From Clostridia bacterium (lineage in GTDB: Bacteria > Bacillota > Clostridia > RUG12999), in assembly GCA_045633565.1 (NCBI GenBank), contig JAZQYO010000024.1, positions 1,395 through 65,394 on the forward strand: a stretch of 64,000 nt of DNA. The letters are read 5' to 3'. The notes below the pieces were generated by a model. It searched no databases. It saw nothing but the letters and a program-made list of their open reading frames with translations, and was not told where the DNA came from. Position numbers and translations under genes: made by a program. Positions 9,294 through 47,271 of the stretch are shown one piece after another. Numbering within the stretch: position 1 is the stretch's first letter; every line of letters starts with the position of its first letter.

Positions 9294-10364
9294 ATGTATA
9301 ACTTACGACTTGAAAAATTAAGAAAAGAAATGTCTGCACTGCATCTTGATGCAATGCTTGTGTCCGGCTCAGCTAACGTCCGTTATTTAAGCGGTTTTTC
9401 CGGCTCCGAATCTGACCTTGTTGTAACTTCCGACACTGTTTATCTTCTGTGCGATGCCCGCTACACGCTGCAGGCATCCATTGAATGTCTGCACTGCAAG
9501 GTGTTAGATACTGCCGGCGGCATATATAATCTTTTAAACAGCATAATTGCAGACCACAACATACGTTTTCTCGGCATAGAGGACCGGTCACTAAGTCTTG
9601 CCGCATTCAATGCTATGTCAAAAACAGTTGCCGGAGCAGCGCTTATTCCAGCCGGAGCAGTTGTAACAAATCTCCGCATTTTAAAGGATGAAAAGGAAAT
9701 TACCGCTCTTAAAAAAGCGGCATGGATTGCTGACCGTGCATTTGACCATGTTCTTCCGCTTATAAAGACAGGAGTAAAAGAAATTGAGATTGCAGCAGAA
9801 ATTGAATATTCCATGCGTAAAAACGGTGCTGAAAATATCGCTTTTGACACAATTGTAGCTTCTGGACCAAATGCAGCAAAGCCTCACGGCACTGCTTCAG
9901 AAAAGCCCATCCAACCCGGCGATTTTGTCGTGATGGATTACGGCTGCATAGTTGACGGATACTGCAGTGACATTACACGCACTGTTGCGGTAGGTCCTAT
10001 TACTGAGGCACAAAAAAGCGTTTATAATAGTGTGCTGTATGTTCAGACAAAAATGCTTTCGCTTATTCATTCAGGCATGGCATGCAGCGAGGCTGACGCC
10101 ATAGCAAGAAGGCATTTTTCCCTTTTTGGCTGCGAAAAATATTTCACCCATTCTCTCGGACACGGTGTGGGCATAGACATTCACGAACAGCCAAACCTTT
10201 CCGGGCGGTCTGACAAAATTATTTCAGACAACATGGTCATAACCGTTGAACCGGGACTTTATTTGGACGGAAAATATGGCGTGAGAATTGAAGATACGGT
10301 GGTTATTTCAGGCGGAAAACCATACCGACTTACAAATTCTCCCAAAGAATTAATTATAATTTAG
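9294..10364 (+). CDS. pepP: M24 family Xaa-Pro aminopeptidase
   Basis: 356 aa. HSLGHGVGIDIHEQP and VEPGLY pita-bread metal-binding motifs. Confidence 0.85.
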   Translation: MYNLRLEKLRKEMSALHLDAMLVSGSANVRYLSGFSGSESDLVVTSDTVYLLCDARYTLQASIECLHCKVLDTAGGIYNLLNSIIADHNIRFLGIEDRSLSLAAFNAMSKTVAGAALIPAGAVVTNLRILKDEKEITALKKAAWIADRAFDHVLPLIKTGVKEIEIAAEIEYSMRKNGAENIAFDTIVASGPNAAKPHGTASEKPIQPGDFVVMDYGCIVDGYCSDITRTVAVGPITEAQKSVYNSVLYVQTKMLSLIHSGMACSEADAIARRHFSLFGCEKYFTHSLGHGVGIDIHEQPNLSGRSDKIISDNMVITVEPGLYLDGKYGVRIEDTVVISGGKPYRLTNSPKELIII

Positions 10365-16210: not shown

Positions 16211-16213
16211 ATT

Positions 16214-16267
16214 GTCGTAATTTGTCGATAAAAAATTGTTGCAAAATGTAAAATAAAATGTTATAAT
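16214..16267 (+). promoter_or_regulatory. conserved operator-like box plus sigma-A promoter, copy 1 (paralog of 21262..21315)
   Basis: GTCGTAATTTGTCGATAAAAAATTG, then TTGCAA (16239–16244), a 17-nt spacer and TATAAT (16262–16267). It is about 80% identical over roughly 55 nt to the copy at 21262. Confidence 0.6.
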
Positions 16268-16270
16268 AAA

Positions 16271-16483
16271 TTTGCTACAAAAAGTCAATATAGAAGGGAT
16301 TTGATAACACCAAGGGATTGGTATATCCATTTTTAATATTGTATACATTGGTTAGAAACTGCTAAAAACGTAGGCTCCACCGGTGTATGCGATGTGTTTA
16401 ACATATCCTTTCTTCGGACTTTTTGTAGCAAAAAAGGGAGCTATGCGTTTTATGTGCGTCAGCTCCGGCCGACGCACTTTTTT
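16271..16483 (+). promoter_or_regulatory. structured leader / candidate sRNA or attenuator, copy 1
   Basis: The 5' strand UUUGCUACAAAAAG (16271–16284) is perfectly complementary to CUUUUUGUAGCAAA (16419–16432). The helix extends inward (AGAAGGGAU / AUCCUUUCU). It is followed by GGAGCUAUGCGUUUU (16437–16451) and terminator GUGCGUC-N10-GACGCAC-UUUUUU (16454–16483). A 29-codon uORF (MRFMCVSS..., 16443–16532) overlaps the terminator. Confidence 0.45.
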
Positions 16484-16553
16484 AATATTCCGAAAACCGG
16501 AATGTCGAAAATCGCCATTCCCTACAATTTAATTAAATGATTGGAGAAAGATT

Positions 16554-16643
16554 ATGGATAAATATAAAGAAATGTATTATATTTTATTTAATGCTATCAC
16601 CGAGGCAAATAAAATCTTACAGGAGGCTCAAAAGAAAGTCTAA
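16554..16643 (+). CDS. small hypothetical helical protein, 29 aa (paralog of 21545..21667)
   Basis: GGAGAAAG RBS, then ATG. Hand translation gives MDKYKEMYYILFNAITEANKILQEAQKKV. It is below the ORF-track size cut-off. It is followed by a terminator and has a 40-aa paralog with 23 of the first 29 residues identical. Confidence 0.45.
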   Translation: MDKYKEMYYILFNAITEANKILQEAQKKV

Positions 16644-16669
16644 GAAATTTATATTTCAAACAAATAACT

Positions 16670-16696
16670 AAAACCCGACCAATGGTCGGGTTTTTT
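16670..16696. terminator. bidirectional intrinsic terminator (small ORF on plus strand, phosphoribosyltransferase on minus strand)
   Basis: aaaacccgacc-aatg-ggtcgggtttttt. A-tract upstream, T-tract downstream. Confidence 0.75.
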
Positions 16697-21167: not shown

Positions 21168-21261
21168 AATTTTATTAATCTGTAGGGGCGCCCGAACCGG
21201 GACGATGAAGGCATCGTCCCCTACAATAATTCTGCATCAATTTCTGTGCGTCCGTTTCAGT

Positions 21262-21315
21262 GTCGTAATTTGTCGACAAAAAATTGTTGCAAAATGTAAA
21301 TTTTGGTGTTATAAT
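21262..21315 (+). promoter_or_regulatory. conserved operator-like box plus sigma-A promoter, copy 2
   Basis: GTCGTAATTTGTCGACAAAAAATTG contains the perfect 12-bp palindrome TTTGTCGACAAA (21268–21279). TTGCAA (21287–21292), 17-nt spacer, TATAAT (21310–21315). Confidence 0.6.
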
Positions 21316-21318
21316 AAT

Positions 21319-21473
21319 CTTGCTAAACAAATTACATATTTCTTTTAGGCATGTGTTTTGCTTATGGCAAAAACGCAAGCTCTATTTACATGCCTTGAAG
21401 AAAGTGTCTGTAATTTGTTTAGCGACTTGGAGCTATGCGTTTTTCGTGCGTAGCCTTGCGCTACGCATTTTTT
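21319..21473 (+). promoter_or_regulatory. structured leader / candidate sRNA or attenuator, copy 2
   Basis: CUUGCUAAACAAAUUAC (21319–21335) pairs with GUAAUUUGUUUAGC (21410–21423), with compensatory changes relative to copy 1. Inner helix AGGCAUGU/ACAUGCCU. GGAGCUAUGCGUUUUU (21429–21444). Terminator UGCGUAGC-CUUGC-GCUACGCA-UUUUUUU (21446–21473). A 34-codon uORF (MRFSCVAL..., 21435–21539) overlaps the terminator and ends inside the RBS of the next ORF. Confidence 0.45.
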
Positions 21474-21544
21474 TATTACCTGATGTGCACTATAAGGTTT
21501 AAAGGCGTAGATGCTCTAAAAATAATATTAAAGGAGTAAAACTT

Positions 21545-21667
21545 ATGGACAAATATCAGGAAATGTATTATGTTTTATTTAATGCAATAACAGAGGCAAC
21601 CAAAATACTGGAAGAAGCACAGAAAAAAGCGGAAGAAATATACATATCGACAAATGAGGAAAACTAA
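21545..21667 (+). CDS. small hypothetical helical protein, 40 aa (paralog of 16554..16643)
   Basis: AAGGAG RBS. Hand translation gives MDKYQEMYYVLFNAITEATKILEEAQKKAEEIYISTNEEN. Followed by a terminator hairpin. Confidence 0.45.
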   Translation: MDKYQEMYYVLFNAITEATKILEEAQKKAEEIYISTNEEN

Positions 21668-21673
21668 AAAATC

Positions 21674-21705
21674 AAGGTGGCTGATGTTAGCCACCTTAAT
21701 TTTGT
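21674..21705. terminator. bidirectional intrinsic terminator
   Basis: aaggtggc-tgatgtta-gccacctt followed by aattttgtttt. It overlaps the stop codon of the minus-strand 58-aa ORF. Confidence 0.7.
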
Positions 21706-46702: not shown

Positions 46703-46884
46703 GTGAAATATCTCACTCCGTTCGATATGAAATAATTTACTCTGTAAATTGTGAAATAGAAACCTTAAGGTTTCTGTGAAATAAAATAAATCCTTTATCA
46801 CACGCCGCAAGGCGTATTTCATATTGCGAAGCAATATTTCATACACGAAGTGTATTTCACAAATCCTGAAAGGATTTATTTCAT
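46703..46884. repeat. symmetric array of eight RTGAAATA boxes (4 direct and 4 inverted) interleaved with short GNRA/GAA-loop hairpins
   Basis: GTGAAATA or ATGAAATA at 46703, 46727, 46751 and 46776 (24-24-25 nt phasing). TATTTCAT or TATTTCAC at about 46815, 46835, 46853 and 46877. Spacers form mini-hairpins: ATTTAC-TCT-GTAAAT, GAAACC-TTAA-GGTTTC, CGCC-GCAA-GGCG, TTGC-GAA-GCAA, CAC-GAA-GTG, AAATCC-TGAAA-GGATTT. Confidence 0.6.
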
Positions 46885-46900
46885 TGAAAAAACGACTTGT

Positions 46901-47078: not shown

Positions 47079-47117
47079 CAAAAGATGTGCTTTCTTCTTT
47101 GGCTGCCGGACTAGGAT
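47079..47117. repeat. 39-bp direct repeat copy 2 (genuine tRNA-Gln 3' end plus its terminator half)
   Basis: See copy 1. Includes the terminator AAGCACATC-TTTT-GATGTGCTT for the minus-strand tRNA operon. Confidence 0.75.
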
Positions 47118-47173
47118 TCGAACCCAGACAAACAGAGTCAGAGTCTGTCGTGCTACCCTTACACAATCCGGCA
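47100..47173 (-). tRNA. tRNA-Gln (anticodon CUG)
   Basis: Reverse complement TGCCGGATTGTGTAAGGGTAGCACGACAGACTCTGACTCTGTTTGTCTGGGTTCGAATCCTAGTCCGGCAGCCA. Acceptor U1-A72, anticodon loop CUCUGAC, T-loop GGTTCGAATCC, encoded CCA. Confidence 0.9.
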
Positions 47174-47179
47174 ATATAT

Positions 47180-47271
47180 TGGAGGAGAGGAAGGGATTCG
47201 AACCCTCGATACGCTATTAACGTATACAGCATTTCCAATGCTGCGCCTTCAACCAACTCAACCACCTCTCC
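47180..47271 (-). tRNA. tRNA-Ser (anticodon GGA)
   Basis: Reverse complement GGAGAGGTGGTTGAGTTGGTTGAAGGCGCAGCATTGGAAATGCTGTATACGTTAATAGCGTATCGAGGGTTCGAATCCCTTCCTCTCCTCCA. 7-bp acceptor stem, long variable arm, anticodon loop UUGGAAA. Confidence 0.9.

Follow-up and report, generated by a model that had tools for sequence, protein, structure and literature searches.

Interleaved RNA helices in a two-copy leader ahead of a micro-protein gene of uncultured Clostridia: a candidate transcription attenuator

The 64,000-nucleotide stretch of the Clostridia bacterium contig JAZQYO010000024.1 that was analysed here (assembly GCA_045633565.1, positions 1,395 to 65,394; hereafter the window) contains a module in which a promoter is followed by a long RNA hairpin, an intrinsic terminator and a very short open reading frame (ORF). 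The module is present twice on the + strand, with the copies 5 kb apart. An earlier inspection of the letters without database searches (the sequence-only reading) had framed the question that this locus raises: is the part that ends at the terminator a stand-alone terminated RNA of about 210 nt, or is it a cis-acting attenuator? This frame was right, and two pairings termed B:D and D:E turn it into a concrete three-helix architecture. We think, at a probability of roughly one half, that both copies are leaders close to the promoter which control a micro-protein gene by transcription attenuation. The attenuator layout is suggested because the helices B:D, D:E and E:F are mutually exclusive and follow each other in series.

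Sequence comparison gives copy 1 (16213-16694) and copy 2 (21261-21697) the same order of parts: tandem Spo0A-box-like repeats, promoter, hairpin, segment D, terminator, a 70-nt spacer, a Shine-Dalgarno (SD) sequence, the micro-ORF and a second terminator hairpin. The hairpin of copy 1 is closed by TTTGCTACAAAAAGTC (16271-16286), which is fully complementary to GACTTTTTGTAGCAAA (16417-16432), and the helix continues inward with AGAAGGGAT (16292-16300) and ATCCTTTCT (16405-16413). Its counterpart in copy 2 is formed by CTTGCTAAACAAATTACA (21319-21336) and TGTAATTTGTTTAGCGA (21409-21425), followed further in by AGGCATGTG and TACATGCCT. The claimed complementarity of the 5' and downstream arms in both copies, including its inward extension, is therefore present in the sequence where it had been placed. 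The elements of the two hairpins are the following.

16271..16286, + strand: copy 1, 5' arm of P1 (segment A), from folding and covariation
16292..16300, + strand: copy 1, 5' arm of P2, from folding and from native versus chimeric halves
16314..16336, + strand: copy 1, small hairpin P2a (GGG-N9-YCC) with AUUUUUAA at the three-way junction, in long forms only
16336..16351, + strand: copy 1, 5' arm of P3, from folding
16380..16395, + strand: copy 1, 3' arm of P3, from folding
16405..16413, + strand: copy 1, 3' arm of P2, from folding
16417..16432, + strand: copy 1, 3' arm of P1 (segment C), from folding and covariation
21319..21336, + strand: copy 2, 5' arm of P1, from folding and covariation
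21339..21355, + strand: copy 2, 5' arms of P2 and P3 in a short form with no three-way junction, from folding
21356..21383, + strand: copy 2, apical hairpin UUUUGC/GCAAAA, which overlaps segment B, from folding and covariation
21387..21403, + strand: copy 2, 3' arms of P3 and P2, from folding
21409..21425, + strand: copy 2, 3' arm of P1, from folding and covariation

Folding of both leaders with RNAfold, a check that had been proposed, yields minimum free energies of -81.4 kcal/mol for copy 1 (z = -8.2) and -58.4 kcal/mol for copy 2 (z = -7.4), and none of 200 dinucleotide shuffles folds as well as the native hairpins. As two sequences alone cannot establish covariation, homologous copies in related genomes were gathered as well, most usefully by exact-protein look-ups and further by two collection scans. 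Protein-pattern scans of genome and metagenome contigs gave at least 8 and at least 6 loci, mostly distant relatives without the leader. The resulting sample comprises 19 module copies on contigs of gut and rumen Clostridia, about 14 of them clearly distinct. A plain MAFFT alignment of the full-length RNAs (A3) was structurally meaningless, and block alignments (A4, A5) were used instead. When each locus is folded independently, RNAfold returns P1 with 12-20 perfect bp, a hinge in the form of a 5-8-nt internal loop or bulge, more helices and an apical hairpin, and then segment B.

P1 is paired in 97.8% of the cells of alignment A4, and both sides have changed in 11 of its 14 pairs. The whole tested structure (P1 and B:D) reaches 96.4% of cells paired against 81.6% in shuffles, with none of 500 shuffles reaching the observed value, and only 38-48% of the cells pair when the 3' partner is slid by 1-3 columns. 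Complementarity of P1 within a locus is 14/14 in 14 of 16 loci, compared with a mean of 10.4 across loci. The native hairpin halves fold at -37.2 kcal per 100 nt and between-locus chimeras at -21.3, so that the two halves co-evolve. G·U pairs outnumber A·C by 34 to 1 in P1 and B:D, and 104 G·U pairs stand against 5 A·C 1x1 mismatches in the whole hairpins. As G·U far exceeds A·C, selection acts on the + strand RNA and not on a DNA palindrome. The earlier view of P1 as a covarying, selected RNA helix is thus borne out by the alignment of the 19 copies.

The same counts bear on the idea that the unit is a DNA-level feature, such as a palindromic insertion of the miniature inverted-repeat transposable element (MITE) type, an invertible segment or a recombination site. 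The unit indeed occurs in several dispersed copies, a separate palindromic element (TGTAGGG...CCCTACAAT) accompanies the module, and at locus L001 a ~290-nt insertion is flanked by 20-nt inverted repeats. A palindrome of double-stranded DNA would, however, show G·U and A·C equally. Moreover, inversion would alter almost nothing as the interior is palindromic, the interleaved B:D pairing and the coupling to a terminator have no DNA-level rationale, and the gene tables of the looked-up loci place no conserved recombinase beside the copies. We therefore consider this explanation hardly credible. An inverton, which would have repeats flanking a non-palindromic segment and mismatch symmetry, was rejected with regard to the palindromic interior and the G·U/A·C asymmetry, and an integron attC site was rejected for having no DNA-level symmetry here.

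Two sizes of hairpin occur. Long forms of ~165 nt are found in copy 1 and ten others and contain a three-way junction with the GGG-N9-YCC hairpin and AUUUUUAA; P2a and the junction are conserved in W1, L015, L019, L022, L027, L028, L033, L037, L039 and L001. Short forms of ~105 nt, in which the three-way junction is absent, are represented by copy 2 and six others (L029, L032, L034, L036, L003), and in most of them the 5-8-nt hinge joins two arms that are similarly long (~16 and 16 bp). The sequence-only reading had noted that the interior differs between the copies. The difference in length and sequence stands, but the interior is not simply non-conserved, since the apical segment is common to long and short forms and the junction to the long ones.

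The question arises whether such a P1-enclosed domain could be the aptamer of a metabolite or second-messenger riboswitch, in which a ligand would reposition B relative to D. The organisation of a P1-closed multi-helix domain followed by a terminator platform, with junction nucleotides CAAGGG-N9-YCC-AUUUUUAA shared by the long forms, would suit it, and there is a precedent for this organisation in the cyclic di-GMP-I (c-di-GMP-I) small-protein genes of C. difficile (bioRxiv 10.64898/2026.06.10.731418). The short forms, however, have no three-way junction and yet keep P1, B, D and the terminator, so that the parts shared by all members are the base of P1, B and D, with no invariant aptamer core. 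Outside these parts the hairpin is mostly plain Watson-Crick helix of variable length. At Rfam 15 gathering thresholds, the whole window contains only Gut-1 and two tRNAs, all outside the module, and at E <= 10 the two copies and four other loci match only sub-threshold terminator-like leaders and plant miRNA-precursor hairpins; no Rfam riboswitch model is among these matches. The RNA leader is outside every Rfam 15 family, which agrees with the earlier statement that it belongs to no nameable riboswitch class, and a full-text search of the literature found no comparable system. The term 'riboswitch' that had been used for it is unsupported in the strict sense, as nothing points to a small-molecule ligand, and we regard a ligand-sensing leader as quite improbable. 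Other RNA classes were also considered and dropped: a retron non-coding RNA (no reverse transcriptase gene), 6S RNA (neither the fixed length nor the central bubble) and an HDV-like ribozyme (mismatch in topology or size).

Downstream of the hairpin, both copies share the 15-mer GGAGCTATGCGTTTT (16437-16451 and 21429-21443) without a single difference, and a terminator follows each, as had been described. This segment, D, had been noted as invariant. It is not a free-standing box but the covarying pairing partner of a segment at the tip of the hairpin, B, and would alternatively pair with the 5' arm and loop of the terminator. B has the consensus AAAAACGYAGGCUCY, D is its reverse complement, and the pairing of GGAGCUAUGCGUUUU with this conserved apical segment explains its invariance.

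16364..16378, + strand: copy 1, apical segment B (AAAAACGUAGGCUCC), complementary to D; RNAduplex -18.7 kcal/mol, covariation, permutation test
16437..16451, + strand: copy 1, segment D (GGAGCUAUGCGUUUU), partner of B and candidate partner of E; identity, duplex, covariation
21369-21383, + strand: copy 2, segment B (AAAAACGCAAGCUCU); B:D -20.3 kcal/mol
21429..21443, + strand: copy 2, segment D (GGAGCUAUGCGUUUU); identity, duplex, covariation

The pairing in copy 1 consists of 6 bp, a one-base bulge and 8 bp, and a B:D duplex of -15 to -24 kcal/mol is predicted in each of the 16 copies then in hand. On alignment A4, 95% of the B:D cells are paired and 7 of 14 pairs have changed on both sides; as the B and D blocks were anchored by sequence alone, this test is not biased toward pairing. 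B pairs with its own D at -16.98 kcal/mol and with the D of other loci at -13.38 kcal/mol, a difference that was reached in none of 20,000 permutations. Matching changes are found as GACUCC/GGAGUC in L019, as ACUCU/GGAGU together with AAAAAU/AUUUUU in L003, as GGUUCC/GGGACC in L001, as AGCUCU/AGAGCU in L034 and as CACA/UGUG in L029. The order of the segments, A (5' arm of P1), B, C (3' arm of P1) and D, does not allow B:D to be nested with P1, and as roughly half of B and half of D is unpaired in the nested ensemble, both would be open to a non-nested contact. An upstream helix that sequesters an antiterminator strand, i.e. an anti-antiterminator, is apparent in the pairing and covariation of B:D, which may form within one molecule or between two.

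Segment D is also polymorphic at one locus in different samples. L039, L040 and L042 have GGAGCU, which makes a C·A mismatch with B (GACUCC), and in L041 the sequence GGAGUU restores a U-A pair with B GACUCC.

The terminator that follows D consists of a 5' arm with loop (E), a 3' arm (F) and a U tract, and it lies between the promoter and the micro-ORF, where the terminator of an attenuator is expected.

16454..16483, + strand: copy 1, intrinsic terminator with E at 16454-16466, F at 16471-16477 and U tract at 16478-16483; from folding and covariation
21446..21474, + strand: copy 2, intrinsic terminator with E at 21446-21458, F at 21459-21467 and U tract at 21468-21474; from folding, terminator scan and covariation

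The E:F helix is paired in 96.3% of cells across the 19 copies and covaries, a value reached by none of 500 shuffles. D:E was modelled with F omitted, which mimics the state before the 3' arm is transcribed. For this tail, a D:E hairpin is predicted in most loci with -8 to -14 kcal/mol, next to -13 to -17 kcal/mol for the terminators; in copy 1, GGAGCUAUGCG would pair with UGCGU-C-AGCUCC at -14.1 kcal/mol. On alignment A5, D:E is paired in 87% of cells compared with at most 57% when slid, and the changes are compatible and mostly one-sided. This pairing would also account for the near-copy of B's GGCUCC in the terminator loop, and in L001, where D has changed to GGGACC, both B (GGUUCC) and the terminator loop (GGUUUUCC) have matching sequences. 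Pairing of D with F as antiterminator was dropped, as the changes of D in L003 and L015 are unmatched in F.

Two further observations concern this region. The insertion in L001 (2650-2935, ~290 nt) lies between D and the terminator. An inverted repeat of 20 nt (GCGGCGGTTAATCTTAGGGA / TCCCTAAGACTAACCGCCGT) at its ends would rejoin D and the terminator in the RNA; the insert has its own terminator-like hairpin. Between terminator and SD, a third GCUC(C/U) box is found in the window (21511-21517, AUGCUCU) and in L015, L028, L033, L029, L032, L034 and L036, either directly behind the U tract of the terminator or at 15-25 nt 5' of the SD. The SD (GGAG) and D are both potential partners of this box, a hint at an extra translational layer.

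How could these helices control the micro-ORF? Transcription would start at a strong sigma-A-type promoter with two Spo0A-box-like repeats, at about the first base of P1, and the first 105-165 nt would fold as a rigid imperfect hairpin (P1-P2-P3, to which the long forms add the three-way junction). For D there would then be two competing partners: B, with 14-16 bp and about -19 kcal/mol, and E, with -8 to -14 kcal/mol. Capture of D by B would leave E free and let the terminator form, resulting in an RNA of ~210 nt (copy 1) or ~155 nt (copy 2). If B misses D, D:E would form first and pre-empt the terminator, and RNA polymerase would read into the micro-ORF. We infer this switching logic and the read-through from the arrangement of the helices. 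Some loci seem to leave the micro-ORF no room for a promoter of its own, which would imply read-through: in L015 only ~30 nt separate terminator and start codon, and this micro-ORF would therefore have to be read through from the upstream promoter. The access of B to D may be set by a fold-back at the hinge, by a factor that binds the hairpin and bends or opens it, or by pairing in trans, where B of a terminated RNA might capture D of a nascent transcript (product feedback) or homodimers might form. Such an architecture would be uncommon among attenuators: with the anti-antiterminator on the tip of a long hairpin, the decision would rest on three-dimensional reach or on an intermolecular RNA contact, and not on a neighbouring competing helix.

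Several points weigh against this attenuator. One is the geometry, as B tops a stack of 30-50 bp and D is only 1-8 nt past P1. An intramolecular B:D looks impossible in the long forms with the hairpin intact, and in the short forms B:D would be possible in cis only if the hairpin folds in half at the 5-8-nt hinge. With predicted energies of -57 to -92 kcal/mol, the hairpin is also much too stable for an equilibrium with B:D as the alternative. The covariation of D:E is not significant, since 39 of 500 shuffles reach the observed percentage of paired cells, and for this reason we take D:E as plausible and not as proven. The register of the 3' block of P1 was picked by best complementarity and thus favours pairing, although the cross-locus control still gives 14/14 within a locus versus a mean of 10.4 across loci. 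The 19 copies are not independent, several being near-duplicates or variants of one locus, and they come from a single clade of uncultured Clostridia. Transcription start, termination and read-through are predictions. Finally, the micro-ORF of copy 1 is truncated while its leader is intact, which hints at a possible function of the RNA itself.

The geometry might find its explanation in an intermolecular B:D pairing, where the rigid hairpin of variable length acts as a strut that separates B from the D of the same molecule and offers it to the D of another. This would explain why hairpin length is free (105-165 nt), whereas B is always apical and D always 1-8 nt from the base. One possible form is an antiparallel RNA homodimer with two 14-bp bridges. 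Another possible form is the capture of D on nascent transcripts of the family by the terminated RNA, which would then be a self-encoded 'countertranscript' from the sense strand and would exert product feedback on a Spo0A-timed micro-protein family. We consider the intermolecular pairing tentative and rather unlikely.

The intact leader of copy 1 ahead of a prematurely stopped micro-ORF would also suit a stand-alone small RNA (sRNA) gene, whose terminated transcript of ~155-210 nt would act in trans on other targets via an exposed apical B or a single-stranded D, with the micro-ORF as an occasional read-through passenger or separate gene. In its favour, the structured RNA is very stable and lies between a strong promoter and a strong terminator whose U tract has 6-7 residues, the several dispersed copies per genome are always self-contained units among unrelated housekeeping genes, and B and D are, as mentioned, about half unpaired in the nested ensemble. 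Yet a micro-ORF follows the RNA in all 19 copies (one of them, the first L003 tandem copy, being truncated), and a pattern search of the window and of the 10-kb flanks of three other loci found no orphan RNA copy lacking the micro-ORF. In addition, covariation of B and D within a locus is unexpected if each of them pairs with an external target, and the match of D to the 5' arm of the terminator suits an expression platform and not a seed region. A pure sRNA gene is therefore doubtful, and the two explanations overlap, as an RNA released by an attenuator on termination may at the same time be an sRNA.

The promoter regions of the two copies contain the following elements.

16213..16229, + strand: copy 1, tandem Spo0A-box-like repeats TGTCGTA-ATT-TGTCGAT, 10 bp start to start, ~9 nt 5' of the -35 hexamer; one base differs from copy 2
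16239..16267, + strand: copy 1, promoter TTGCAA-17-TATAAT with extended -10 (TGn); promoter scan, 10/12 matches plus TG
21261..21277, + strand: copy 2, tandem Spo0A-box-like repeats TGTCGTA-ATT-TGTCGAC; sequence comparison
21287..21315, + strand: copy 2, promoter TTGCAA-17-TATAAT with TGn; promoter scan

The promoter block of ~55 nt is identical between the two copies, and the promoter including its spacer is kept across the loci. As the -10 hexamer of copy 1 ends at 16267, transcription most likely starts near 16273-16275. The conserved covarying helix begins at U16273 (UGC.../...GCA in nearly all loci). The sequence-only reading had equated the 5' end of the transcript with the start of a 14-bp arm; the helix itself is retained, but the first 2-3 bases of the arm as quoted may precede the start. 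The hairpin begins 4-6 nt past the -10, and in all loci P1 starts 0-2 nt from the predicted transcription start. Moreover, P1 is a perfect duplex of 15-20 bp. These two features would also be expected if P1 were simply a 5'-terminal stabiliser that protects the micro-ORF mRNA from 5'-end-dependent decay, or a processing hairpin cleaved by RNase III, in both cases without switching. Stabilisation of transcripts by 5'-terminal stem-loops is known in Bacillota from aprE/ermC-type leaders of B. subtilis. Such a role would leave the B:D covariation, the D:E complementarity and the strong terminator before the ORF unexplained, and a length of 100-165 nt is more than a stabiliser requires. For these reasons we find it improbable. 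No internal second promoter is conserved, and the promoter scan detected a single, weak antisense promoter-like site in copy 1 (9/12).

What might time transcription is suggested by the 7-bp repeats upstream of the promoter, TGTCGTA and TGTCGA(T/C), which are spaced by 10 bp in both copies. Of the 19 copies, 17 have tandem boxes of the type TGTCGnn-N3-TG(T/A)CGAn at a constant distance from the -35. The consensus of the Spo0A box is TGNCGAA/TGTCGAA, in which G2, C4 and G5 are contacted (PMC7643835, PMC3485338), and an 0A box with these contacted bases near the -35, as in Spo0A-regulated promoters, is present as a sequence match. We infer from this match that Spo0A~P may control the module promoter. 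Genes for a small acid-soluble spore protein (SASP) and for spoIIIAH are among the neighbours of module copies, so that the host lineage is probably spore-forming. The lineage of L003 has no tandem 0A-like boxes.

What would be expressed by read-through is a protein of 36-40 amino acids that is hydrophilic, amphipathic and helical.

16554..16643, + strand: copy 1, micro-ORF of 29 codons with a premature TAA at the conserved Glu30; from ORF and comparison with L033
16670..16694, + strand: copy 1, hairpin that ends the unit; the scan calls a terminator on the - strand only (16694..16670), and the hairpin is kept in L033
21545..21667, + strand: copy 2, micro-ORF of 40 amino acids, MDKYQEMYYVLFNAITEATKILEEAQKKAEEIYISTNEEN; from ORF and 57 homologue clusters
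21674..21697, + strand: copy 2, terminator past the micro-ORF; terminator scan

Since a T run follows the hairpin of copy 1 on the + strand, this hairpin may also end the transcript of the micro-ORF. Beyond the premature TAA of copy 1, the homologous frame continues (EIYIS), and the orthologue L033 is intact (10001-10111, 36 amino acids). The copies differ mostly at synonymous positions, so that the micro-ORFs are under selection at the protein level. Homologues of the 40-residue product form 57 clusters of 36-40 amino acids from metagenomes and metagenome-assembled genomes (MAGs), none of them annotated. Invariant residues are M1, Y8, L11, I15, A18, L22 and Q26, and the motifs FNAITE and KK-EE are nearly invariant. 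Searches of Pfam, NCBIfam, PHROGs and PDB sequences with the micro-protein, its alignment and longer relatives returned only de novo designed helical proteins and weak noise.

Three other coding arrangements were considered and rejected. A type I toxin-antitoxin pair does not fit, since the peptide MDKYQEMYYVLFNAITEATKILEEAQKKAEEIYISTNEEN is hydrophilic/amphipathic and an antisense gene is not evident. No conserved ORF that could encode a leader peptide is present in the 5' half, which in copy 1 has no AUG. A short ORF from the AUG inside D would have too short a spacing to the SD, and this AUG is missing in L024.

Longer relatives of the micro-protein (50-65 amino acids), with an insertion between the two conserved helices, occur without the structured leader in L002, L004-L007 and L010-L013. 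Those of L002 and L004-L007 adjoin an apparent divergent gene of the XRE-type helix-turn-helix (HTH) class, the HTH identity being judged by eye from the sequence. This arrangement suggests an ancestral partner or antagonist of a regulator.

With regard to the distribution of the module, the order of promoter, hairpin, D, terminator, SD and micro-ORF is kept in the 19 copies at different intergenic sites. These sites lie, among others, after spoIIIAH, beside ack-pta, valS, metK or pyrBI, and between rplM and an oxaloacetate decarboxylase gene, and in the gene tables of the looked-up loci the neighbour on the downstream side is convergent with a single exception. The two copies in the window are separated by a phosphoribosyltransferase (PRTase) gene on the - strand and a pyruvate:ferredoxin oxidoreductase (PFOR) gene, and L033 is a syntenic orthologue of copy 1 with the order ClpB, HtrA, module, PRTase(-), PFOR. 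The source samples are from ruminant and human gut, and the MAGs that have a name are 'Clostridia bacterium' and 'Oscillospiraceae bacterium'. A scan of viral contigs for the promoter and box pattern found no match, so there is no sign of a phage-borne module.

At L003, an Oscillospiraceae MAG, the leader is tandemly duplicated (2488-2653 and 2801-2970), with a truncated micro-ORF after the first copy. The tandem copies differ in P1 by compensatory changes (AAAGUUU/AAACUUU versus AAAUCU/AGAUUU).

The separate palindromic element TGTAGGG(G)...(C)CCCTACAAT, or its 3' half, is found near the module at varying positions. In the window it lies upstream of the promoter of copy 2 (21181-21228) and in the interval between terminator and SD of copy 1 (16498-16528), and the sequence CCCTACAAT occurs twice in the 64 kb, each time adjoining a module. 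Elsewhere it is located between terminator and SD (L019, L022, L027) or upstream of the boxes (L028, L037). The element may be similar to repetitive extragenic palindromic (REP) sequences or MITEs, or may be a trace of the spread of the module. Its remnant in copy 1 holds a perfect 0A box, TGTCGAA, at 16505-16511. Apart from the module, the Gut-1 RNA of the window (RF01706, 72 bits; 46811-46886, - strand) lies ~215 nt downstream of a tRNA-Ser / tRNA-Gln pair (47100-47271, - strand).

If the proposed attenuator is real, the leaders would represent an undescribed family of structured regulatory RNAs in uncultured gut and rumen Clostridia, together with an undescribed, highly conserved and multicopy micro-protein family. 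The tandem 0A-like boxes would place this system in the programme of sporulation entry and would provide a handle on micro-proteins that annotation pipelines miss.

Among known systems, the closest in terms of genomic organisation is the CD1980.2 family of C. difficile, in which 5-7 paralogous genes for 58-residue membrane-associated proteins each follow a c-di-GMP-I riboswitch with premature termination and promote sporulation (bioRxiv 10.64898/2026.06.10.731418). Both are multicopy sets of near-identical small proteins in spore-forming Clostridia with a structured leader and a terminator, and the 0A-like boxes described here point to a possible link to sporulation in our case. The present leader, however, is not a c-di-GMP riboswitch, and its protein is hydrophilic, helical and only 36-40 residues long, with no detected similarity to any family. 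With respect to the RNA itself, the OLE dimer and the ROOL and GOLLD cages are relevant, as covarying 'tertiary' pairs of these RNAs proved to be intermolecular (PMC12286853). The B:D helix is likewise covarying and hard to fit within one folded molecule. In contrast to these far larger RNAs, the present one has 105-215 nt and a simple hairpin as its body, to which a terminator and an ORF are coupled, and oligomerisation would be purely hypothetical.

The likeness to classical attenuators that work with terminator, antiterminator and anti-antiterminator is found in the logic of the helices. As in the 1:2, 2:3 and 3:4 pairings of the trp type and in the platforms of transcriptional riboswitches and T-boxes, the serial segments B, D, E and F allow three exclusive helices, and the final one forms an intrinsic terminator, completed by a U tract, between a promoter and an apparently promoterless downstream ORF. 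Different from these systems, B is not adjacent to D but is located, with geometrically restricted access, at the apex of a long rigid hairpin whose length varies. Unlike classical attenuators and T-boxes, the leader also lacks a leader peptide, tRNA-binding elements, a conserved aptamer core and an Rfam match.

Attenuation by countertranscripts in plasmid rep genes (pT181, pIP501/pAMbeta1) employs a complementary RNA loop on a stable stem, which captures a preemptor so that the terminator forms. There, the complementary segment stems from an antisense gene, whereas B is on the same strand and on the same transcript as D; moreover, the loci described here are chromosomal and multicopy, they encode a micro-protein and not a replication initiator, and action in trans would be hypothetical. 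Nevertheless, D would correspond to the preemptor that blocks the terminator via its 5' arm, and the feedback would be alike if B acts in trans.

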